64,000 nt of DNA, from positions 7,366 to 71,365 of the forward strand of contig CAVBQS010000040.1 of the NCBI GenBank assembly GCA_963597615.1, in the 5' to 3' direction. The stretch comes from Bacteroidaceae bacterium (lineage in GTDB: Bacteria > Bacillota > Clostridia > Lachnospirales > Lachnospiraceae). Positions 6,728-58,463 of this stretch are shown in pieces (the first letter of the stretch is position 1; every line of letters starts with the position of its first letter). The notes under the pieces were generated by a model, which saw nothing but the letters and a program-made list of their open reading frames with translations, ran no database searches and had not been told where the DNA came from. Made by a program: the position numbers and the translations under genes.

Positions 6728-8878
6728 ATGCAGAAAAATAAAGAGATAGAAAAGCAAATTGAAGATTTAATAAAGGAGCTAAGCCTTGACGAGAAAATTG
6801 GTATGATCCATGGGGCGGGACTTTTTCGTACAGAAGGGGTGGACCGTCTTGGAATTCCGCCGGTAAAAATGTCCGACGGGCCCATGGGGGTTCGCAATGA
6901 ATTTCCAGATGATTCCTGGGTGCCGGTGGGAAAAAGTGATGACTATGTAACCTATCTGCCAAGCAACAGCGCCCTGGCATCTACATGGAATCGAACTTTG
7001 GCTTATGAGACGGGAAAAGTTCTTGGAGAAGAGGCCAGAGGAAGAGGAAAAGATGTGATTCTTGCACCGGGCATTAATATTAAAAGAAGTCCTCTCTGCG
7101 GACGAAATTTTGAATATATGAGTGAAGACCCTCACCTAAGCGGGGAGATGGCTGTGCCGGTAATCGAAGGCGTTCAGGCCGCAGATGTGGCAGCCTGTGT
7201 AAAACATTTTGCAATTAATAATCAAGAGACCGAGCGTCTCTGGGTAGATGTAAAAGTTAGTGACAGGGCGGCAAGAGAAATCTATTTCCCGGCATTTAAA
7301 AGGGCAGCAGGGGAGTCCTATTCCATGATGGGAGCCTATAATCTTTACAAGGGGAGACATTGCTGTGAAAACAAAGAGCTCCTAAATGAGATCCTCCGAA
7401 AAGAATGGGGATATGATGGTATGGTGGTATCGGACTGGGGAGCGGTTCATAAGACCAAAGAGGTGGCAAAGGCTGGTTTGGATATAGAAATGTCTGTTAC
7501 CTATGATTTTAATGAATACTGCATGGCAAAGCCCCTAAAAGAAGCAGTAGAAAAAGGGGAGATTGCGGAAGAATTGTTGGATGAAAAGGTTGGAAACATT
7601 CTTCGGATGATGTATCGTCTGCATATGATTGGAGAAGAAAAAGATCAGAGAAAAGCAGGATGCTATAATACTCCAGAACATAGAAAGAGCGTCCTTATGA
7701 CAGCCCGAGAGTCCGTAGTGCTCCTGAAAAATGATGATAAAAAGCTTCCTTTATCCCCTGAAATAGATCGTATTTTGGTAATCGGAGACAATGGAAACCG
7801 TATTCATTCCAATGGAGGAGGAAGCGCGGAAATAAAAGCCCTTTACGAGATTTCCCCTCTTCTTGGAATCAAAAAGCTCCTTGGTGGCAATACCCAGGTG
7901 GACTTTGTCCAGGGATATTTTGCAGATGATATGGAAGGTCAGGACAGTAATGTGAACTGGCAGGCAGACAGCTTAGAAAATGGTGGAGGCTCCACAGGAG
8001 AGGCTAGAAAGATTAGCCTTGAATTGGAAGTAAAACGACGAGTCTTAAGAGAAGAGGCAGTAAAAAAGGCAAAACAGTATGACACAGTGATCTTCATTGG
8101 AGGTCAAAACCATATGCAGGATTTAGAGGGCCATGACAGACCAGATATGAAGTTGCCTTATGAGCAGGATCAACTGATTAAAGAGGTTTTGGAAGTAAAT
8201 CCAGAAACAGTGGTAATTATGGTTTCCGGGTCCCCGGTGGAGATGCCCTGGATTCACAAGGCAAAGACCCTTGTTTGGCAGTGGTATGCAGGAATGGAAG
8301 GTGGAACTGCCCTTGCAGAAGTGCTTTTTGGAAAAGTAAATCCTTCCGGCCGCCTTCCGGAAAGTTTCCCTAAGACCCATCTAGACTGCTCAGCCCACAG
8401 CATAGGAGAGTTTCCGGGAGACAAAACTGTCGAATACAAAGAAGGAATTTATGTGGGATACCGTCACTATGACACAAGAGATATTCCGGTATTATTCCCC
8501 TTTGGATACGGCCTATCCTATACAGAATTTGCTATTTCAGACTTGGAGGCAGTTGTAAAAATGCCGGGAGAAGAACCCCAGGTAAGTGTCAGTTTAAAGA
8601 TAAGTAATATAGGCAAAGTGGATGGAAAAGAAGTGGTACAAATCTACGTAGGAAAAGAAGAAGCCAAGGTAGATCGCCCAAAGAAGGTGCTAGCAGCCTT
8701 TACCAAAATAGAATTGGCAGTAGGGGAATCCAGCCAGATTAGACTGGATCTAAATCCAAATGCCTTCAGCTACTACGATGAAGAAAAAGGACAGTTTATA
8801 GTAGAGCCGGGAACCTACCAAATCTACGCAGGCAAGTCTGTGGCAGATATCTGTCAAAGTACCATTTGCGAGCTATAA
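6728..8878 (+). CDS. beta-glucosidase, glycoside hydrolase family 3
   Basis: 716 aa. KMSDGPMGVR, nucleophile block MVVSDWGA and a C-terminal Fn3-like domain. No signal peptide. Confidence 0.9.
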   Translation: MQKNKEIEKQIEDLIKELSLDEKIGMIHGAGLFRTEGVDRLGIPPVKMSDGPMGVRNEFPDDSWVPVGKSDDYVTYLPSNSALASTWNRTLAYETGKVLGEEARGRGKDVILAPGINIKRSPLCGRNFEYMSEDPHLSGEMAVPVIEGVQAADVAACVKHFAINNQETERLWVDVKVSDRAAREIYFPAFKRAAGESYSMMGAYNLYKGRHCCENKELLNEILRKEWGYDGMVVSDWGAVHKTKEVAKAGLDIEMSVTYDFNEYCMAKPLKEAVEKGEIAEELLDEKVGNILRMMYRLHMIGEEKDQRKAGCYNTPEHRKSVLMTARESVVLLKNDDKKLPLSPEIDRILVIGDNGNRIHSNGGGSAEIKALYEISPLLGIKKLLGGNTQVDFVQGYFADDMEGQDSNVNWQADSLENGGGSTGEARKISLELEVKRRVLREEAVKKAKQYDTVIFIGGQNHMQDLEGHDRPDMKLPYEQDQLIKEVLEVNPETVVIMVSGSPVEMPWIHKAKTLVWQWYAGMEGGTALAEVLFGKVNPSGRLPESFPKTHLDCSAHSIGEFPGDKTVEYKEGIYVGYRHYDTRDIPVLFPFGYGLSYTEFAISDLEAVVKMPGEEPQVSVSLKISNIGKVDGKEVVQIYVGKEEAKVDRPKKVLAAFTKIELAVGESSQIRLDLNPNAFSYYDEEKGQFIVEPGTYQIYAGKSVADICQSTICEL

Positions 8879-27952: not shown

Positions 27953-28250
27953 TAAGGCAAATTTAACACGTTAGTACACTAAATCGAAGATCAAGAGAAG
28001 TAGACCAAAGGATCTGTTCAAAGAGAGTTGCCGGTGGTGAGAAGGCGATAGCATGAGGCTTGGTTGAATGGACTTGAGAGAGTGGCTTGAAATCTTAAAT
28101 AATAGAGAGTAGATGTCAACGGGAGCCCTATCCGTTATCAACCGGGTATGCATGATTGTGCATAACAGAGTGGTCTTAATAAGACAATTTGGGTGGTACC
28201 GCAGAAGATTATGAAGCTTTTGTCCCTTACTTGGGGCAGAAGCTTTTTTT
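27953..28250 (+). promoter_or_regulatory. T-box leader RNA with tryptophan (UGG) specifier
   Basis: AG-bulge AGAGAG (28022-28027). Specifier context GAA-UGG-A with UGG at 28069-28071. T-box sequence AATTTGGGTGGTACCGCAG (28186-28204). Terminator AAGCTTTTGTCCC-N6-GGGGCAGAAGCTT plus T7 (28214-28250), directly upstream of trpE. Confidence 0.85.
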
Positions 28251-49958: not shown

Positions 49959-50495
49959 TTATGATAGCGGATGCAACTCCCCGGTCAACTGCTTAATATC
50001 CGGAATAGCAGTCAGCACTGGGTATAGAACTACTGCAAGAATCAAACCGCTGCTTCCCTGGATGATGCTGGCTGGTACATTAAGTAAAGAGGTGGCTGCT
50101 CCATACAAAAGGGATTCAAAGAGGAAATATCCTCCGGCTACAAAGACAATATCTACAAGTCCTCCAAGAATTACAGACAGATATCTGGTCTTTTTATCCT
50201 TTGCTATTTTCAGATAAATCACTCCAGTGATGAAGGCAATCAGCCCCTTGATTATAAGGGTAGGAGCCACGAAAACAAAGTATCCGCCCAAAAGATCCGC
50301 CATGGCAGAGCCAATACCTGCAGCTAAAAAGCCATAAGCTGGTCCTAAAATAATACCGGAAAGAATTACAATAGAATCTCCGGGATGGATGTAACCTCCT
50401 GTGGCAGGGGTAGGAATCCGGATGGACATAGTTGCAACGCAGGCTAGGGCGGCAAACAAGGCAGTCATTACTAGTTTCTTTAAATTCTTATTCAT
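49959..50495 (-). CDS. ECF transporter S-component-like membrane protein (substrate unknown)
   Basis: 178 aa and 5-6 TM. The IRIPTPATGGYIHPGDSIVILSGIILGPAYG block resembles substrate-capture components. I recognised no riboswitch upstream. Confidence 0.6.
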   Translation of the reverse strand: MNKNLKKLVMTALFAALACVATMSIRIPTPATGGYIHPGDSIVILSGIILGPAYGFLAAGIGSAMADLLGGYFVFVAPTLIIKGLIAFITGVIYLKIAKDKKTRYLSVILGGLVDIVFVAGGYFLFESLLYGAATSLLNVPASIIQGSSGLILAVVLYPVLTAIPDIKQLTGELHPLS

Positions 50496-50776
50496 GATAG
50501 AAAATCCTTTCTTGACAAATTTATCGGTTTACTTTTTTAACGTTATAAAACACCACTGATGTTGCAACCACTTTATTCCTAGATTGGTTATTTGAAAATA
50601 TCCAATTTTAAGAAAAAATATAAGACCAAAAATCGAATCATTAGTTGAAACTAAGGTAGAATATTCCACTGGCTTGTGTTAAAATGAGATTCGGACCCTT
50701 GGGTCCTTTGAAGAAATGAAAGAATCATCTAAGAAGATTTTAGATGCATATTATTTTAGAAAGAAGGGAATATAAA

Positions 50777-51934
50777 ATGACAAAAGTAGACATTATCTCC
50801 GGTTTCCTTGGAGCCGGAAAGACTACATTTATCAAAGAATTGGTAAGCCGCGTATATGCAGGAGAAAAGTTGGTTCTCATTGAGAATGAGTTTGGTGAGA
50901 TTGGTATTGACGGTGGATTTTTAAAGGATGCTGGAATTGAAATAACAGAAATGAATTCCGGTTGTATCTGCTGTACTTTAGTGGGGGATTTCAGTGAGGC
51001 CCTTCAGAAGGTTTTGGACCAGTATCATCCAGACCGTGTCATTATTGAGCCATCAGGGGTTGGAAAACTGTCGGATATTGTAAAGGCCATTGAGGAGGTA
51101 AAGAAGGATGCAGACATTGAAATCGATGGCCGCATCACTGTAGTAGATGGAAAGAAGACCAAGATGTATCTGAAAAACTTTGGAGAGTTCTTTGAAGATC
51201 AGGTACAGAATGCTTCTACCATCGTAGTAAGCCGTACCCAGCTTATGGACGATGCAAAATTAGAGGAGACCATTGGACTTTTAAGAGAGCAGAATGACAA
51301 GGCTGCAATTATTTCCACTCCATGGGACAGCCTTAGCACAGAGGCTATTAAGAGAGCCCTAGCCCACAGAACCGGCCAGGAAGACCTCTTTGAAGAAGAG
51401 GATCATGACCATGAGTGCGGATGTGGCCATCACCACCATCATGACCATGACCATGAACATGATCATGAGCACGACCACGACCATGAGCACGAGTGCGGAT
51501 GCGGTCATCATCACGACCATGAGCATGACCATGACCACGAGTGTGGATGTGGCCACCATCACGACCATGAGCATGACCACGAGCATCATCATGACCACGA
51601 GCATGAGCATGAACATGACCATGAATGCGGCTGCGGCCATCATCATCATCACCACGCAGATGAAGTCTTCACCAGCTGGGGCAAGGAGACTGCTCACAAG
51701 TACACAGAAGAAGAACTTGATTTCATCTTGAAGGCCTTGTCAGAGACGACTTCCTACGGAACGATTTTGCGTTCTAAGGGAATCATTCCTATGACCGATG
51801 GAAGCTGGAAGCAGTTTGACTTAGTGCCGGAAGAATATGAAGTTCGTGAAGGTCAGCCAGACTACACTGGAAGAATCTGTGTTATTGGTACTGATGTGAA
51901 GGAAGAAGAATTAGCAAAATTATTCCATGTATAA
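50777..51934 (+). CDS. COG0523/CobW-family G3E GTPase metallochaperone with His-rich insert
   Basis: P-loop GFLGAGKTT, NEFGE, the metal-binding CxCC motif GCICC and EPSGVG. An 85-aa His/Asp/Glu/Cys insert precedes the CobW_C domain (ILRSKGI...ICVIG). Start moved to ATG 50777. Confidence 0.85.
   Translation: MTKVDIISGFLGAGKTTFIKELVSRVYAGEKLVLIENEFGEIGIDGGFLKDAGIEITEMNSGCICCTLVGDFSEALQKVLDQYHPDRVIIEPSGVGKLSDIVKAIEEVKKDADIEIDGRITVVDGKKTKMYLKNFGEFFEDQVQNASTIVVSRTQLMDDAKLEETIGLLREQNDKAAIISTPWDSLSTEAIKRALAHRTGQEDLFEEEDHDHECGCGHHHHHDHDHEHDHEHDHDHEHECGCGHHHDHEHDHDHECGCGHHHDHEHDHEHHHDHEHEHEHDHECGCGHHHHHHADEVFTSWGKETAHKYTEEELDFILKALSETTSYGTILRSKGIIPMTDGSWKQFDLVPEEYEVREGQPDYTGRICVIGTDVKEEELAKLFHV
51401..51655 (+). 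repeat. His-codon-rich degenerate tandem repeat with four ECGCGHHH units
   Basis: It encodes DHDHECGCGHHHHHDHDHEHDHEHDHDHEHECGCGHHHDHEHDHDHECGCGHHHDHEHDHEHHHDHEHEHEHDHECGCGHHHHHH. The GA(G/A)TG(C/T)GG(A/C)TG(T/C)GG(C/T)CA(T/C)CA(T/C)CA(C/T) unit occurs 4 times. Confidence 0.9.
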
Positions 51935-51950
51935 GAGGAGATAAAAAACT

Positions 51951-52892
51951 ATGGCAACACCAGTATTTATTTGCACAGGTTTCCTGGACAGTGGAAAGAC
52001 AACCCTGGTGCAGGATACTCTTATGGAGCAGGAGTGGATGGAAGAGGGATTAACCCTTTTAATCAGCTGCGAGGAGGGTGAAGTAGAATATTCCCCAGAG
52101 TATCTAAAAGAAAAGGACATGGCCATTTTGCAGGTGGATGAGTTTGACCAGCTAAATGCTGCCTTCTTTAAAAACTGTGAAAAGAATTACCATCCGGTTC
52201 AGATTGTCATTGAGTATAACGGTATGTGGAGTTTAGGTGATCTCTTGTCTATTCGATTCCCAAGAAACTGGGAAATTGCAGGTATTTATTCCACCATCAA
52301 TGGTCAGACCCTGGATATGTATATGAAGAATATGAGAAATATGCTTATGGAGCCTTTGACAGAATCCTCTCTGATCATCGTAAATCGTTGTTCAGAGGAT
52401 ATGAACCGGTCTGGTTTCAGACGAGCTCTCAAGGTACAAAATCCCATGGCTCAGTTAATTTTTGAAGACCTGAATGGAAATATTATAGAGCCTACAGAAG
52501 ATGACCTTCCTTTTGACATTAAGGGAGACAAGGTTGTTATCGATGATATTGATTTCGGCGCCTGGTATGTAGACGCCTACGATCATCCAGAGCATTATCT
52601 TCACAAAGAAGTAGAATTTGTGGCCCAGGTATTTAAACCAAATGGATTAGGACCCAACTACTTTGTGCCGGTGCGAAAGATTATGACCTGCTGTGAGGCA
52701 GATACCAGATTCTATGGCTATCCTTGCCTAGTGGAGAAGAAAATCAATCTTCGCCGTCATCAGTGGGTGAAGGTAAGGGCTAGATTTGAATATGAGCAAT
52801 TGCCATCTAACCAGAAGAAGAATCCGGTGCTTCATCTGATCGACTTGGAGCCGGCAGTAAAACCGGACCCGGAAGTAGTATTTATGGGATAA
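51951..52892 (+). CDS. CobW-like P-loop domain (no CxCC) fused to a DUF1980-like C-terminal 'CCxAD' domain
   Basis: The N-terminal half is collinear with CobW (GFLDSGKTT, LISCEEGEV, IVIEYNG, LIIVNRCSED) but lacks the GCxCC metal motif and NKxD. The C-terminal VRKIMTCCEADTRFYGYPCLV...WVKVRARF resembles, from memory, the conserved core of DUF1980/YcgQ-type proteins. It starts 16 nt after the upstream gene. Confidence 0.6.
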   Translation: MATPVFICTGFLDSGKTTLVQDTLMEQEWMEEGLTLLISCEEGEVEYSPEYLKEKDMAILQVDEFDQLNAAFFKNCEKNYHPVQIVIEYNGMWSLGDLLSIRFPRNWEIAGIYSTINGQTLDMYMKNMRNMLMEPLTESSLIIVNRCSEDMNRSGFRRALKVQNPMAQLIFEDLNGNIIEPTEDDLPFDIKGDKVVIDDIDFGAWYVDAYDHPEHYLHKEVEFVAQVFKPNGLGPNYFVPVRKIMTCCEADTRFYGYPCLVEKKINLRRHQWVKVRARFEYEQLPSNQKKNPVLHLIDLEPAVKPDPEVVFMG

Positions 52893-52905
52893 AATTATTG
52901 GCAAT

Positions 52906-54612
52906 ATGAAATATAAATCGCAGTGGTACTCTTATAGCGCCGCTGCGATTTGTGGAATGAGAGAGATGCTTGGCAAGATGCCAAGTGGAAAGGAATTTGA
53001 AGATATGAGGAGATTGTCTAAAAGTGTAGGAAGGATTCTTGTAGTAATGGTCCTTCTGGGACTTGTCGGTGTGCCGGTTTTGGCAGCAGATTCAGCAGAC
53101 TATGTGCCGGATATGTATGCCAGCATCTGGTCTTTGGTGCCACCAGTGGTTGCCATTGTTTTGGCATTAATTACTAAGGAAGTATATAGTGCCCTATTTA
53201 TTGGAATTTTAATCGGAGGATTTTTCTGGTCCGGATTTCATGCAGAAAAGGCTATTTTGCATGTGTTTGAGGATGGCCTGGTAGGGGTGCTGACAGATAG
53301 CTACAATATGGGAATTTTAATTTTCCTGGTAATTCTTGGAGTCATGGTTGCCATGATGAATAAGGCGGGAGGCTCTGCAGCTTTTGGTCGTTGGGCCAAG
53401 ATTCACATTAAAACCAGAGCAGGCGCCCAGTTTGCCACCATTGCCCTGGGAGTTTTGATCTTTATTGATGATTATTTTAATTGCCTTACGGTAGGAAGCG
53501 TTATGCGCCCTATAACCGATGGCCATAAGGTGTCAAGAGCCAAGCTTTCTTACCTTATAGACGCTACGGCCGCACCGGTATGTATCATTGCCCCTATTTC
53601 TTCCTGGGCGGCAGCAGTTACAGGATTTGTAGAGGGAGAGGATGGATTTTCAATTTTCATCCGTGCCATTCCCTACAACTATTATGCCATCCTTACCATT
53701 GTTATGATGCTTACTTTAGTAATCTTGAATTTTGATTACGGCCCAATGAAAGACCACGAGAAAAATGCCCTGAAAGGGGACCTTTTTACCACAGAAGACA
53801 GACCTTATGCCAATGCCCAGACAGAGCTTCCTTCCAACAAGGGAAAGGTTATCGACCTGGTATTTCCGATATTAGCCTTAATTATTCTGTGTGTGATTGG
53901 AATGCTTTACAGCGGTGGATTCTTTTCTGGAACAGGGTTTGTGGAGGCCTTCTCTGGTAGTGATGCTTCTGTAGGATTGATGCTTGGAAGTTTCTTTGCC
54001 TTAGTAGTAACCATTATTTTCTATGCTGCAAGAAAGGTTCTTAGATTTACAGATTCCATGGCTTGTATTCCGGAGGGATTTAAGGCTATGGTGCCGGCTA
54101 TCTTAATTCTTTCTTTTGCATGGACTTTAAAATCTATGACTGACAGCTTAGGAGCAGCAGAGTATGTAGCCGGTGTTATGAGTAATGCAGCAGGAAGCCT
54201 TATGCATTTACTGCCAGCGATTATCTTTTTGGTAGGATGCTTCCTTGCCTTCGCCACAGGAACATCCTGGGGAACCTTTGGAATTTTGATTCCCATTGTA
54301 GTGGCAGTATTTCAGGGAACCAACGAGACTATGATGATTATTTCTATCTCAGCATGTATGGCAGGAGCCGTATGCGGAGACCACTGTTCCCCAATATCTG
54401 ATACCACCATTATGGCATCGGCAGGAGGCCAGTGTAACCACGTAAACCACGTATCCACCCAGCTGCCCTACGCCATTACCGTAGCTATTGTATCTGCCGT
54501 AACCTATATGATCGCCGGAGTAGTACAGAATGCAGCGATTTGTTTAATCATAGGAATCTTGTTGCAGGTCGGCGTACTTTTTGCAATTCAAAAATTTACA
54601 AGCCAGAGATAA
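52906..54612 (+). CDS. NhaC-family (Na+/H+ antiporter-type) membrane transporter
   Basis: ~540-568 aa with at least 10 TM helices and overall NhaC-like composition. The start is uncertain: ATG 52906 or ATG 53005, the latter giving MRRLSKSVGRILVV... with a signal-like helix. Confidence 0.7.
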   Translation: MKYKSQWYSYSAAAICGMREMLGKMPSGKEFEDMRRLSKSVGRILVVMVLLGLVGVPVLAADSADYVPDMYASIWSLVPPVVAIVLALITKEVYSALFIGILIGGFFWSGFHAEKAILHVFEDGLVGVLTDSYNMGILIFLVILGVMVAMMNKAGGSAAFGRWAKIHIKTRAGAQFATIALGVLIFIDDYFNCLTVGSVMRPITDGHKVSRAKLSYLIDATAAPVCIIAPISSWAAAVTGFVEGEDGFSIFIRAIPYNYYAILTIVMMLTLVILNFDYGPMKDHEKNALKGDLFTTEDRPYANAQTELPSNKGKVIDLVFPILALIILCVIGMLYSGGFFSGTGFVEAFSGSDASVGLMLGSFFALVVTIIFYAARKVLRFTDSMACIPEGFKAMVPAILILSFAWTLKSMTDSLGAAEYVAGVMSNAAGSLMHLLPAIIFLVGCFLAFATGTSWGTFGILIPIVVAVFQGTNETMMIISISACMAGAVCGDHCSPISDTTIMASAGGQCNHVNHVSTQLPYAITVAIVSAVTYMIAGVVQNAAICLIIGILLQVGVLFAIQKFTSQR

Positions 54613-54625
54613 AAAGGAGATTTAT

Positions 54626-57547
54626 ATGAATATAAAAAATATTCCAGCTTACGAACTCATTAAGGAGGAAGACCTGCGAGGTGTCCATGCTAAGGGCTAC
54701 CTCCTTCGGCATATAAAAAGCGGCGCCCGTGTGCTTCTTATGGAGAATGATGACGATAATAAGGTCTTTAATATCGGTTTTCGAACTCCGCCGGCTAACA
54801 GCACCGGTGTGCCACATATCTTAGAGCACAGTGTTCTGTGCGGGTCCAAGAACTTTCCAGCCAAAGACCCTTTTGTGGAGTTGGTTAAGGGATCTTTAAA
54901 TACGTTTTTAAATGCCATGACCTACCCGGATAAGACGGTTTACCCGGTAGCTAGCTGTAATGACAAGGATTTCCAGAATCTCATGCATGTTTATATGGAT
55001 GCAGTTTTCTATCCTAATATTTATGAACACGAGGAAATCTTTCGTCAGGAGGGATGGAGCTACAAGTTAGACTCCAAGGATGACAAGCTGATTCTAAGTG
55101 GTGTGGTTTACAATGAGATGAAGGGAGCTTTCTCTTCTCCTGAGGGGGTCTTGGACCGGGTGGTTTTAAATACCCTCTATCCTGACACTTCCTATGCCAA
55201 TGAGTCCGGCGGAGACCCGGAGGTGATTCCGGAGCTTAGCTACCAGGAATTTTTGGACTTCCACAGTAAGTATTACCATCCATCCAACAGCTATATTTAT
55301 CTCTATGGAAATATGAACATGGAAGAAAAGCTTCAGTGGATGGACCGGGAATATTTAAGCCATTTTGATAAGATTAGGGTAGATTCTGAAATTAAACTTC
55401 AGGCTCCTTTTACTGCCATGAAAGAGGTGGCTATTCCTTATTCCATTTCCAGTGAGGAAGATGAGGAAAATCAAACCTATTTATCCTACAACAAAAGTGT
55501 AGGAACAAGCTTGGACCGAGAATTATACCTGGCCTTTCAGGTTCTAGACTATGCCCTCCTTTCAGCTCCGGGAGCTCCTCTAAAGAAGGCTCTTACCGAT
55601 GCAGGCATTGGAGATGATATTTTAGGTTCCTATGACAATGGCATTTACCAGCCCATTTTTTCGGTCATCGCTAAGAATGCAAATACAGATCAGAAGGATG
55701 AATTTGTAGAAATCATTGAGAAGGTTCTTTCTGATATTGTAAAGAAGGGCGTGGACAAAAAAGCCATCCAGGCAGGTATTAACTACTTGGAATTCCGCTA
55801 TAGAGAAGCGGATTTTGGAAATTATCCAAAGGGTCTTATGTACGGCCTGCAGATTATGGATAGCTGGCTCTATGACGAGGAAAAGCCTTTTATTCATTTA
55901 GAGGCTCTAGAGACCTTTGAATTTTTGAAAAATATGGTGGGAACTTCCTACTACGAGGACCTTATTAAGAAGTATATTTTAGATAATACCCACGGTGCCA
56001 TTGTCCTTGTGGAGCCGGAAAAAGGAAGAACTGCCAGAATGGATGTAGAGTTAGACGAGAAACTCCAGGCCTACAAGGCTTCCTTAAGTGAAGCCCAGGT
56101 GGAAGACTTGGTGGCAAGAACCAAGGCCTTAGAAGACTATCAGACTGCACCGGAAGACCCGGAGGCTTTAGAGAAGATTCCGGTATTAGGTCGGGAGGAT
56201 ATTTCAAGAGAGATTGCTCCTATTCAGAACCGGGAGATTACCGTATCCGGCATTCCTGTTCTCCTTCACGAGGTGGAGACCAATGGCATCGGTTATGTGA
56301 CCTTGCTTTTTGATTTCTCAAAAGTGGGAGAAGAATTGCTTCCATATGTGGGAATTTTACAGGCGGTACTTGGAATTATTGATACAGAGCATTATGAGTA
56401 CGGAGAACTCTTTAACGAGATTAATTTAAAAACCGGTGGAATTGGAACTTCCTTGGAGCTTTACAATGATATTTTCGACGTGAAAAATAAGAGCTTTAAA
56501 ACCACCTTTGAGGTGAAGGCAAAAGCCCTATACTCCCAGCTTCCAACGGCATTTCAGATGATGGGAGAGATTTTAACCGCATCAAAGCTTCAGGATGAGA
56601 AGCGCTTGCTTGAAATTCTTATGATGTTAAAATCCAGACTTCTTATGAAATTTACCAGCGCAGGCCACAGCACTGCTGCCTTAAGGGCTATGTCCTATTC
56701 CTCGCCCTCAGCCAGGTTAAAGGACATGACAGGAGGCATTGAGTTCTACCAACTGATTAAGGAGTTGACAGACAATTTTGAAGAGAAGAAGGCAGATCTG
56801 ATCTTAAAATTAGAGAACCTTACAAAAATCTTATTCCGGGTGGATAATTTCATGATCAGCTACACCGCTCCAACAGAAGCCTCTGAAAAATTAGGGGAGT
56901 ATGTGGAGATTTTAAAACAGGTCCTTTATAAAGAAAAGCCGGAAGAAAAGCCACTGAAGCTTATTTGCCAGAAGAAAAATGAAGGCTTTAAGACTGCATC
57001 GAAGGTCCAGTATGTAGCCAGAGTGGGAAATTTCCTAGACTATGGGGCAGACTATAATGGAGCACTAAATATCCTAAAAGTTATTTTAAGCTATGATTAT
57101 CTGTGGCAAAATGTCCGGGTAAAGGGTGGAGCCTACGGCTGCATGAGTAGCTTCAGCCGCACAGGAGAATCCTACTTTGTTTCTTACAGAGATCCTAATC
57201 TAAAGCAGACAATGGAAATTTATGAAGGCGTAGTAGACTATCTAAAGAATTTTGAAGTAAGCGACAGAGATATGACCAAATATATTATTGGAACCATCAG
57301 TAATATTGACCAGCCTATGACCCCTTCCACCAAGGGAGATAGGTCCTTAAGTCTCTACATGAGCCATGTAACAGCGGACATGATTAAGACAGAAAGAGAC
57401 CAGATTTTAAATGCTAGCCAAGAAGACATCAGGGCACTGGCTAAGGTGGCTGAGGCTATGCTTAAGGCAGGCCAGGTTTGTGTCATCGGCGGGGAAGATA
57501 AAATCGAAGAAAATGCAGACATGTTCATGAATGTAACCAAGTTCTAG
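54626..57547 (+). CDS. M16C (PreP/insulinase-like) zinc metalloprotease
   Basis: 973 aa with the inverted zincin motif HILEH near the N-terminus and four-domain length. Start moved to ATG 54626 behind AAGGAG. Confidence 0.85.
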   Translation: MNIKNIPAYELIKEEDLRGVHAKGYLLRHIKSGARVLLMENDDDNKVFNIGFRTPPANSTGVPHILEHSVLCGSKNFPAKDPFVELVKGSLNTFLNAMTYPDKTVYPVASCNDKDFQNLMHVYMDAVFYPNIYEHEEIFRQEGWSYKLDSKDDKLILSGVVYNEMKGAFSSPEGVLDRVVLNTLYPDTSYANESGGDPEVIPELSYQEFLDFHSKYYHPSNSYIYLYGNMNMEEKLQWMDREYLSHFDKIRVDSEIKLQAPFTAMKEVAIPYSISSEEDEENQTYLSYNKSVGTSLDRELYLAFQVLDYALLSAPGAPLKKALTDAGIGDDILGSYDNGIYQPIFSVIAKNANTDQKDEFVEIIEKVLSDIVKKGVDKKAIQAGINYLEFRYREADFGNYPKGLMYGLQIMDSWLYDEEKPFIHLEALETFEFLKNMVGTSYYEDLIKKYILDNTHGAIVLVEPEKGRTARMDVELDEKLQAYKASLSEAQVEDLVARTKALEDYQTAPEDPEALEKIPVLGREDISREIAPIQNREITVSGIPVLLHEVETNGIGYVTLLFDFSKVGEELLPYVGILQAVLGIIDTEHYEYGELFNEINLKTGGIGTSLELYNDIFDVKNKSFKTTFEVKAKALYSQLPTAFQMMGEILTASKLQDEKRLLEILMMLKSRLLMKFTSAGHSTAALRAMSYSSPSARLKDMTGGIEFYQLIKELTDNFEEKKADLILKLENLTKILFRVDNFMISYTAPTEASEKLGEYVEILKQVLYKEKPEEKPLKLICQKKNEGFKTASKVQYVARVGNFLDYGADYNGALNILKVILSYDYLWQNVRVKGGAYGCMSSFSRTGESYFVSYRDPNLKQTMEIYEGVVDYLKNFEVSDRDMTKYIIGTISNIDQPMTPSTKGDRSLSLYMSHVTADMIKTERDQILNASQEDIRALAKVAEAMLKAGQVCVIGGEDKIEENADMFMNVTKF

Positions 57548-57560
57548 AAAAGGAGAAAGC

Positions 57561-58463
57561 ATGAGAGAGGATTTTAAATCCGGATTTGTAACCTTGGTGG
57601 GAAGACCAAATGTAGGAAAATCCACCTTAATGAATTATTTGATTGGCCAAAAGATTGCCATTACCTCCAACAAACCCCAGACCACAAGAAACCGCATCCA
57701 GACGGTTCTTACCACTGATGAGGGGCAGATTGTATTTGTGGACACACCGGGAATCCACAAGGCAAAAAATAAGCTGGGCCAGTACATGGTAAATGTGGCA
57801 GAGCGGACCCTTAACGAGGTGGATGTGGTGCTGTGGCTGGTAGAGCCTACCACCTTCATCGGAGCAGGAGAGCAGCATATCGCAAAACAGCTTGAAAGGG
57901 TGAAGACCCCGGTGATCTTAGTCATAAATAAGACAGACAGTGTTCCTACTGAAAAAGTATTAGAGGCCATTAATGCCTATAAGGACATTTATGACTTTGC
58001 AGAGATTGTCCCTGTATCAGCCAGAAGTGGAGCAAATACAGAGGAGCTTCTAAAAACCGTAATGAAATATTTGCCTAATGGACCCCAATTTTATGATGAG
58101 GATACCATTACCGACCAGCCGGAGCGGCAGATTGTGGCAGAGATTATTAGAGAGAAGGCCCTTCACAGCCTGAATGAGGAAATCCCCCACGGCATTGCAG
58201 TGGCCATTGATCAGATGAAGAAAAAGGGAAAAGTTACCCATATCGATGCCACCATTATCTGCGAGAGGGACAGCCACAAGGGGATCATTATTGGAAAGCA
58301 GGGCAGCATGCTTAAAAAAATCGGCAGCACTGCCAGGTATGAAATAGAGAAAATGCTGGGAAACCAGGTTAACCTAAAGCTTTGGGTAAAGGTGAAAAAA
58401 GATTGGCGAGACAGCGAATATCTTATGAAGAACTTTGGATACCGGGATGATACGGAATTTTAA
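57561..58463 (+). CDS. era: GTPase Era
   Basis: 300 aa with G1 GRPNVGKST, G3 DTPG and G4 NKTD, plus a C-terminal KH domain. Confidence 0.93.
   Translation: MREDFKSGFVTLVGRPNVGKSTLMNYLIGQKIAITSNKPQTTRNRIQTVLTTDEGQIVFVDTPGIHKAKNKLGQYMVNVAERTLNEVDVVLWLVEPTTFIGAGEQHIAKQLERVKTPVILVINKTDSVPTEKVLEAINAYKDIYDFAEIVPVSARSGANTEELLKTVMKYLPNGPQFYDEDTITDQPERQIVAEIIREKALHSLNEEIPHGIAVAIDQMKKKGKVTHIDATIICERDSHKGIIIGKQGSMLKKIGSTARYEIEKMLGNQVNLKLWVKVKKDWRDSEYLMKNFGYRDDTEF

Follow-up and report, generated by a model that had tools for sequence, protein, structure and literature searches.

Three co-directional genes on the forward strand of a Lachnospiraceae genome fragment raise the question of how far a metal-handling system extends: does it comprise two proteins or three, and which metal would it handle? 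The genes lie in a stretch of 64,000 nucleotides of contig CAVBQS010000040.1 (assembly GCA_963597615.1), which as a whole is called the window here. The first gene (g1) encodes a COG0523-family GTPase, the second (g2) a soluble protein in which a related nucleoside triphosphatase (NTPase) domain is fused to a DUF1980_C domain, and the third (g3) a membrane transporter. The initial annotation read all three as one operon for metal delivery coupled to a secondary transporter. Comparison with homologous loci identifies the g1-g2 pair instead as the conserved unit. On balance, and without great firmness, we favour the view that the pair is a self-contained bicistronic module, running from promoter to terminator, in which two proteins handle a metal, most likely zinc, in the cytoplasm in a nucleotide-dependent manner. 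The elements of the pair are listed below, with residues numbered in amino acids (aa).

50777-51934, forward strand: g1, a COG0523-family GTPase of 385 aa, composed of G-domain, His/Cys-rich linker and CobW_C domain
50963-50974, forward strand: CxCC motif of g1 (CICC, aa 63-66; GCICC, aa 62-66), invariant in 69 full-length orthologues
51392-51664, forward strand: linker of g1, in which His, Asp, Glu and Cys abound and ECGCGHHH occurs four times; the underlying DNA is a series of degenerate tandem repeats
51770-51781, forward strand: RSKG of g1, the RxKG arginine-finger motif of CobW_C (aa 332-335)
51951-52892, forward strand: g2, a soluble fusion of 313 aa, with a CxCC-less G3E NTPase domain and a predicted DUF1980_C oligonucleotide/oligosaccharide-binding (OB) fold
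51951-52490, forward strand: N-terminal NTPase domain of g2 (aa 1-180), with GFLDSGKT, C40-E-E-G43, E88-Y-N-G91 and N145-R-C147
52521-52883, forward strand: DUF1980_C domain of g2 (aa 191-311), a predicted OB-fold beta-barrel (PF21537, 6.9e-20)
52674-52703, forward strand: candidate metal-binding turn of g2, R242-x2-M245-T-C247-C248-x2-D251, invariant in 84 of 84 homologues

How widespread is this arrangement? Homologues of g2 numbered 1131 in a collection clustered at 90% identity, where they are named "GTP-binding protein", "hypothetical" or "TIGR03943 family putative permease subunit". At 50% identity the matching clusters numbered 2105 (E<=1e-3), or 208 under the stricter threshold of E<=1e-30; almost all were full-length matches of about 313 aa, down to 25% identity. 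A species-level scan with a 12-sequence alignment placed g2 in no fewer than 579 GTDB species, the majority of them from Lachnospiraceae and Oscillospiraceae. The architecture had at first been thought to match no described system, and our literature search indeed found no description of the g1-g2 pair or of the g2 fusion, yet by these counts it is not rare. Three contigs with a Clostridia-type pair (L017, L048, L085) are labelled as Bacteroidaceae, Alloprevotella or Bacteroides metagenome-assembled genomes and are probably mis-binned.

The counts of neighbouring genes rest on 80 GTDB species loci that we retrieved. In all 80, a g1 orthologue lies immediately upstream of g2 on the same strand, typically 10-35 nt away, and the same adjacency is found in loci from metagenome and plasmid collections (L001-6, L087-89, L091). 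Distant g2 members, 25-28% identical (L093, L095, L096), likewise have a COG0523 gene beside them, with the gene order inverted in some cases. Homologues of g3 are absent from all 80 species loci. The g1-g2 adjacency is thus far beyond chance and the g2-g3 adjacency is not conserved. A Pfam census of the pair's neighbours revealed no conserved third gene, as no family exceeded 4 of 70 downstream (GntR/FCD, YlmH) or 7 of 60 upstream (H+-PPase, in the Dorea group), and neither Na_H_antiporter nor ArsP_1 turned up among these neighbours. Since g1 stands beside g2 in every species locus and g3 in none, the conserved unit is the bicistronic g1-g2 pair (50777-52892), and the three-gene system originally proposed does not hold. 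The pairing spans two subtypes of COG0523 protein, the His-rich SRTQ type and the NKCD type of L093, and the fusion would thus seem to depend on having some canonical COG0523 protein beside it, of whatever lineage.

The flanks of the pair contain the following elements.

50674-50685, forward strand: promoter-like element TTGTGTTAAAAT (-16 TRTG and -10 TAAAAT) upstream of g1
52912-52954, forward strand: stable hairpin with a 16-bp stem right after the g2 stop codon, followed by a second hairpin at 52968-52986

Across the g1 leaders of nine related loci, TTGTGnTAAnAT is the sole conserved block, and from its sequence the g1 promoter looks like an ordinary sigma-A promoter. No Rfam family matched the g1 leader, either at the gathering threshold or at E<=10. 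Downstream of g2, the region 52885-53010 folds with a minimum free energy of -35.8 kcal/mol (z = -4.56). The initial annotation had seen no terminator between the genes. A consensus terminator scan likewise called none between g1, g2 and g3, but the very stable hairpin just after g2 tells against an uninterrupted operon; it escaped the scan because its tail has only 4 T in 8 nt, a poor U-tract. In many other loci, strong canonical intrinsic terminators directly follow g2. Taken with the conserved -16/-10 element before g1 and the heterogeneous flanks, these terminators support an independent g1-g2 unit.

The product of g1 matches cobW (1.8e-40) and CobW_C (1.9e-5) in Pfam and YjiA at 2.3e-18, and has no hydrophobic segment on the Kyte-Doolittle scale. 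A GAAGGGA ribosome-binding site stands ahead of its ATG, and orthologues align with it at this start (ATGACAAAAGTAG). GFLGAGKT and IIEPSG of the G-domain are invariant in 69 orthologues, CICC occurs at aa 63 in 71 of 71, and RxKG occurs in 68 of 71, the remaining three being truncated reads of 222-326 aa. The CxCC motif is the family-defining high-affinity metal site of COG0523, and RxKG acts as a self-GAP (GTPase-activating protein) in ZigA and MigC (Rocchio et al. 2026, PMC13001444). Where (N/T)KxD would be expected at G4, g1 has SRTQ, aligned to TKTD of YjiA. Across the 69 orthologues the four positions hold Ser (68), Arg (69), Thr (64) and Gln (50) or Asp (12), so that the Arg is invariant. 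The DNA of the linker consists of degenerate tandem repeats with periods of 48 and 84. The linkers of g1 orthologues are all His-rich, with 16-73 His, and their length differs even between near-identical relatives, g1 having 385 aa in the window and 406 aa in L089, whose g2 is 97% identical. Two long open reading frames at 51359-51697 (reverse strand) and 51390-51731 (forward strand, other frame) are artefacts; both arise from the CAT/GAC-rich tandem repeats in the coding sequence of the His linker. Judged by their motifs, g1 and its orthologues are textbook COG0523 proteins by the criteria of PMC13001444, except for the atypical G4. The original assignment of g1 to this type, with GCICC and a deviating G4, was thus borne out.

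Then, what is g2? Its N-terminal part matches cobW in Pfam with 24.8 bits against a cut-off of 20.7 (aa 4-147), and the family profile matches YjiA at 6.4e-10, with a 7-residue deletion exactly at YjiA GCICCSR. Residue conservation was counted in 84 homologues, down to about 35% identity. In these, the segment from aa 44 to aa 87 has no conserved Cys, and g2 itself has no match to CobW_C, the place of that domain being taken by the DUF1980_C OB-fold. Since both the CxCC site and RxKG are missing, g2 is not a COG0523 member. The nucleotide-binding motifs are kept. In G1, G10, G15 and K16 are found in 84 of 84 and T17 in 76 of 84; C40 is found in 80 of 84, and E41 and G43 are kept as a near-invariant E-x-G; the G3E signature E88-x-N90-G91 is retained and followed by W93. 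At G4, N145 and R146 are each present in 83 of 84 and C147 in 81 of 84, while the fourth position is Asp in only 32 of 84; the window reads NRCS against TKTD in YjiA. Two further Cys of the NTPase domain are conserved in g2, C40 beside the residue aligned to YjiA E37 and C147 within the N-R-C of G4. C40 itself aligns to YjiA N38, adjoining E37; structure 4IXN, with Zn(II) bound, is of the E37A/C66A/C67A mutant, in which E37 is one of three changed positions.

An AlphaFold2 model of g2, built on a 60-sequence alignment, had a mean predicted local distance difference score (pLDDT) of 92.5 and a predicted template modelling score (pTM) of 0.77. Foldseek related its N-terminal domain to YjiA, HypB and UreG (E of about 1e-5 for the HypB/UreG fold). 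The loss of CxCC and NKxD from a CobW fold had been recognised from the first, and so had the lack of a transmembrane (TM) anchor; the maximum Kyte-Doolittle value in a 19-residue window is 0.89, and there is no hydrophobic segment. The label of a probably degenerate GTPase is doubtful. The (near-)invariance of G1, E-x-G, ExxG and N-R-C argues against a dead enzyme. Because Arg replaces the G4 Lys in both g1 and g2 and the specificity Asp is mostly lost, GTP specificity is not to be assumed for either partner.

The C-terminal part of g2, at first called DUF1980-like, was placed more exactly by profile search. The match to DUF1980_C (PF21537, 6.9e-20) spans positions 20-140 of the 141 in the profile, and PF09323, the N-terminal membrane domain of DUF1980, had no Pfam match in g2. 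TIGR03943 scored 64.5 against a cut-off of 88.8 and matched at positions 97-218 alone, its C-terminal half. In the AlphaFold2 model the domain is all beta after a helix at 199-211, and Foldseek returned OB-folds such as SSB, Ten1/Stn1 and the anticodon domain of AsnRS; in the PDB, no sequence match to the g2 C-terminal domain was found, only these generic OB-fold structural neighbours. R242, M245, C247, C248 and D251 are invariant in 84 of 84 homologues, and D208, Y216, K219, C259 and W272 are nearly so. In the model the CC..D segment forms the turn between strands 237-245 and 252-256.

What is known of DUF1980_C comes from permease partners. ScfB/YcgQ is a membrane protein encoded beside the 8-TM permease ScfA/YcgR, and ScfA and ScfB are needed for the fitness of S. 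pyogenes in vivo with no function assigned (PMC5584981). A Priestia aryabhattai plasmid carries two tandem pairs of an ArsP_1 permease and a protein with DUF1980 N- and C-terminal domains (Pfam). The membrane anchoring and COG0701-type permease pairing that the initial annotation gave for DUF1980 proteins are therefore correct. On the Priestia plasmid (L090, L092; NZ_CP072475.1, 113.9-129.1 kb) these pairs lie between a znuABC-like transporter and ZinT, together with three COG0523 genes, SufU, an rpsN copy and a gene with a 2Fe-2S ferredoxin domain, and the region has the appearance of a zinc-limitation island. An electrophoretic mobility shift assay showed that Zur of B. anthracis binds ahead of the operon of BAS1632, an ArsP_1 permease that resembles SMU_747c; the COG0523 gene yciC lies divergently to this operon (PMC6336718). 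On DUF1980 proteins and their permease partners, the literature search yielded, besides this paper and the ScfAB paper (a Tn-seq study), only a list of S. aureus lipoproteins as relevant.

Canonical DUF1980 proteins carry the same R-x4-[C/H]-C-x2-D turn as g2. One Priestia paralogue has it as RFGISCCVAD, and 120 of 120 Bacillaceae homologues examined have it as RFG[IVLM][IV]HC[VI][AS]D. In addition, TM2 and TM3 of the canonical proteins are joined by a loop rich in His and Cys, in many cases with CxCGHxH. A likeness is seen between ECGCGHHH of the g1 linker, or SCGCGHHH in L095 (4826-5992), and SCECGHDH and CSCGHSH of canonical TM2-TM3 loops (L090:4365-5330, 6734-7585). In 98 three-TM sequences, Lys and Arg together averaged 5.0 in the TM2-TM3 loop, 1.7 in loop 1 and 1.9 after TM3. 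The positive-inside rule, the only basis for this topology, suggests that the canonical TM2-TM3 loop is cytoplasmic and the canonical OB domain outside. If so, the g2 fusion would have moved DUF1980_C into the cytoplasm.

Which metal would the pair handle? Zinc is the best-supported one from genomic context, beginning with the Priestia island and the Zur-bound permease operon of B. anthracis. Operons of ZnuA, ABC-3 and ABC_tran adjoin the pair in 5 of the 80 loci (L045, L067, L071, L080, L085), and their ZnuA proteins have His/Asp/Glu-rich loops, strongest in L045 and L067. The order in L085 is g1-g2-znuC-znuB-fur-znuA, with the Fur-family gene confirmed by Pfam; a small protein at the corresponding place in L080 appears to resemble it. 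ZIP transporters lie downstream of g2 in 2 of 70 loci.

In L093 (564-2981), a fusion 25% identical to g2 stands between two small L33-like genes and a COG0523 gene. One of the small genes is Ribosomal_L33 by Pfam (CTEC...CPRL) and the other a 57-aa relative by eye; each has one CxxC and a degenerate second motif. The COG0523 gene is not His-rich and has CICC, a canonical NKCD and RAKG. The operon is preceded by the palindromes TGCAAATAAGTTGCA and TGCAAATAAATTGCA, 59 bp apart (363-377, 422-436). Paired TGCAA-N5-TTGCA boxes, 58-59 bp apart, also occur upstream of znuC in L080 (8407-8421, 8465-8479) and L085 (8961-8975, 9020-9034). The pairs of these three loci make up 6 of the 8 exact TGCAA-N5-TTGCA matches in 1.21 Mb, where about one is expected. 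On this distribution we regard TGCAA-N5-TTGCA as a candidate clostridial Zur operator.

How could the two proteins work together? What the domains are, which motifs are kept, the constant pairing of g1 with g2, the absence of g3 from other loci and the zinc-related contexts were observed here; that g1 and g2 interact physically, which metal is involved, which way it passes and to which clients is what we infer, along the following lines. The GTPase g1 would hold metal at CxCC, with the long His/Cys-rich linker as a possible reservoir, and would govern its own hydrolysis through the RxKG self-GAP C-terminal domain. Its paralogue g2 would be an active NTPase that lacks a CxCC loop and an RxKG C-terminal domain of its own and presents the candidate R..M.CC..D site of the OB-fold. 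The two would act as a complex or a relay in which metal passes to or from the OB domain of g2. Nucleotide binding and hydrolysis would control the hand-off, after which the metal would be delivered to client proteins.

A more far-reaching version can be put forward only tentatively, as we think it clearly less probable than the module itself. By this version g1 and g2 would form an obligate heteromeric G3E NTPase, an undescribed two-subunit class of metallochaperone, with a Cys-Cys-Asp metal site in the OB-fold of g2 and an Arg-type G4 in both subunits, and the nucleotide used might not be GTP. The fusion would then mark DUF1980_C as a metal-binding module that couples COG0523 proteins to ArsP_1 permeases of the ScfAB/YcgQR type, with a role in zinc acquisition. 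If true, it would give these orphan virulence and fitness determinants such a role.

Several points weigh against a zinc-handling module. The ZnuABC and ZIP adjacencies amount to only about 9% of the loci and may lack phylogenetic independence. Scores for a Bacillus-type Zur box upstream of g1 are at chance level (69 loci; best 13 of 20 matches), no 5-nt inverted repeat is shared by the g1 leaders above shuffled controls, and the TGCAA-N5-TTGCA box is absent near g1 in the window, where the pair may be constitutive. For Ni or Co the CGCG-His linker of g1 would be no less suitable than for Zn. R242 of the candidate site is lost in the most distant member (L093), and the role of canonical DUF1980_C, if extracytoplasmic, may not transfer to a cytoplasmic fusion.

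Two other explanations survive these observations about equally, and both appear unlikely to us. In the first, g2 would be the soluble cytoplasmic subunit of an importer encoded elsewhere (an orphan ArsP_1/COG0701 permease, ZnuBC or ZIP), docking to it and taking over the metal that enters, while g1 would act as a chaperone further downstream. In UniRef, the name "putative permease subunit" matches this explanation, DUF1980_C is otherwise known only from permease partners, and ZnuCB or ZIP genes do adjoin the pair in some loci. However, tblastn with two ArsP_1 queries found no ArsP_1 permease in the window or within about 8 kb in any homologue locus, and the probable position of canonical DUF1980_C on the outer membrane face makes a direct functional equivalence unlikely. 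The second explanation is that the pair, like CobW, HypB, UreG and Nha3, helps to mature a single enzyme or cofactor, here with Ni, Co or Fe, and takes no part in general zinc allocation. The CxCGHxH and CGCG-His repeats of the g1 linker resemble the tails with which HypB and SlyD bind Ni, NCBIfam gave as its top matches a CobW-related selenoprotein and CobW (both below cut-off), and the promoter in the window has no Zur box. Against this, the neighbour census found no hydrogenase, urease, cobalamin or nitrile-hydratase gene consistently adjacent, and the metal-related neighbours that do recur are ZnuABC with a Fur-family gene, ZIP and the L33-like genes.

Less probable again is that g2 carries no metal and regulates g1 as a non-catalytic pseudo-NTPase or as a nucleic-acid-binding OB protein, for example a translation-associated factor. 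The loss of CxCC, RxKG and the G4 Asp would fit such a role, as would structural neighbours like SSB, CST and the anticodon domains of tRNA synthetases, and some genes near the pair are translation genes (truA, era, L20, YlmH). Those neighbours are inconsistent between loci, though; the invariant Walker A, E-x-G, ExxG and N-R-C argue for nucleotide binding; and the invariant CC..D is shared with a permease subunit found in metal contexts.

The transporter gene completes the window's triad.

53005-54612 (frame open from 52906), forward strand: g3, a PF03553 (NhaC/Tet(35)-type) membrane transporter, a neighbour outside the conserved module

Its product matches Na_H_antiporter (PF03553) at 3.6e-52 and has multiple hydrophobic segments, in keeping with the NhaC-type label given originally. 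The equivalog scores are far below the cut-offs, at 212.9 bits against 750 for Tet(35) and 35 against 370 for NhaC (TIGR00931), so that by its scores g3 is assigned to the PF03553 superfamily only and appears Tet(35)-like. The coordinates of the three genes and their gaps agree with those first reported: g1 and g2 are 16 nt apart, and g2 and g3 are 13 nt apart if g3 starts at 52906 or 112 nt if it starts at the ATG at 53005. The latter start is the likelier one because the alignment to the only homologue from another species, in L005, begins at residue 34; an AAGGAA site lies upstream of it. A g3 homologue follows g2 only in L089, which has the same layout and is presumably the same species. 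The homologue in L005 is 4 kb from the pair, behind a PFOR gene; L087, an 80%-identical relative, has no g3.

Beyond g3, the region continues in the same manner. About 13 nt separate the g3 stop from the probable ATG (about 54626) of a 988-aa open reading frame, and about 13 nt separate that frame from era (57561), the whole stretch 54581-58463 being co-directional. The 988-aa product is a putative M16-type peptidase, labelled so by eye, and in L031 the homologous peptidase gene directly follows g2. Because this spacing runs on to the peptidase and era, an operon end at g3 is arbitrary, and tight packing is a property of the region and not evidence for the triad. That g1, g2 and g3 form one operon, in which the chaperones would serve or gate the transporter, is the least probable explanation of all: although the genes are co-directional and closely spaced with no terminator called by the consensus scan, the arrangement recurs in L089 and canonical DUF1980 proteins are permease partners, g3 homologues are missing from all species loci and from L087, none of 70 downstream neighbours is a Na_H_antiporter by Pfam, a very stable hairpin separates g2 from the most likely g3 start and the packing is unspecific. 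The gene g3 is a lineage-specific neighbour of the pair without a demonstrated link to it. Of the metal (Zn, Ni or Co) module coupled to a transporter that was first envisaged, metal trafficking remains plausible, with zinc favoured, and the coupling to the transporter falls away.

On the other side of the pair, 49959-50495 on the reverse strand encodes a riboflavin-type S component of an energy-coupling factor (ECF) transporter (PF07155, 6.4e-36), divergent from g1 and downstream of ecfA-ecfA'-ecfT-truA. No flavin mononucleotide (FMN) or other riboswitch was detected in the intergenic region between this gene and g1. The sole Rfam match at gathering level in the whole window is a T-box leader at 27978-28230 on the forward strand (109 bits).

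The two systems that the fusion joins are both orphans in part. COG0523 proteins hold a key place in how cells respond to zinc starvation, and little is known of the partners with which they work, of their metal sources or of their clients; DUF1980/ArsP_1 proteins (ScfAB) are needed for streptococcal virulence and yet have no assigned function. The pair offers a soluble, tractable system for studying metal hand-off, the role of the CC..D turn and nucleotide specificity with an Arg-type G4. It is widespread in the dominant Lachnospiraceae and Oscillospiraceae of the human gut and may bear on how commensals face metal restriction by the host.

How does the pair compare with known systems? The NhaC, Tet(35) and ArcD-type transporters of PF03553 share with g3 the domain and a multi-helix membrane form, whereas g3 lies far below every curated equivalog cut-off and is unlinked to the pair in other genomes. 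HypB and UreG, the dimeric G3E Ni chaperones, have the same fold as g2 and provide a precedent for a GTP-controlled metal site between two G-domains. They are homodimers without a C-terminal domain or OB-fold, whereas a g1-g2 heterodimer is only putative. With COG0523 proteins (ZigA, MigC, ZagA/YciC, YjiA, CobW, ZNG1), g1 shares the G3E G-domain, CxCC, the His-rich linker and CobW_C with RxKG, and the N-terminal domain of g2 is homologous to them (YjiA, 6.4e-10), keeping G1 and the ExxG motif of G3. The differences are that g2 has an OB-fold in place of the CxCC loop and the RxKG C-terminal domain, that at G4, where (N/T)KxD would be expected, g1 has S-R-T-Q and g2 has N-R-C-x, and that described members act as single polypeptides whereas g1 is obligately paired with a stripped paralogue. 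G3E metallochaperones are already known; the proposed two-subunit architecture with an OB-fold subunit is new.

With the DUF1980/TIGR03943 and ArsP_1 systems (ScfAB of S. pyogenes, YcgQ/YcgR of B. subtilis, SMU.746/747), g2 shares DUF1980_C and its R-x4-[C/H]C-x2-D turn. A genomic association with COG0523 and zinc genes is common to both, and the canonical His/Cys loop (CxCGHxH) echoes the repeats of the g1 linker. Unlike the canonical proteins, g2 lacks the N-terminal membrane domain, is fused to an NTPase and is predicted to be cytoplasmic, and an adjacent permease accompanies it in none of about 90 loci. Since it has no membrane domain, no adjacent permease and a score below the curated cut-off, g2 is not a YcgQ/TIGR03943 member. 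The fusion may instead be read as a Rosetta stone linking COG0523 chaperones to DUF1980/ArsP_1 permeases, which is consistent with the co-localisation and co-regulation of the two in Bacilli.

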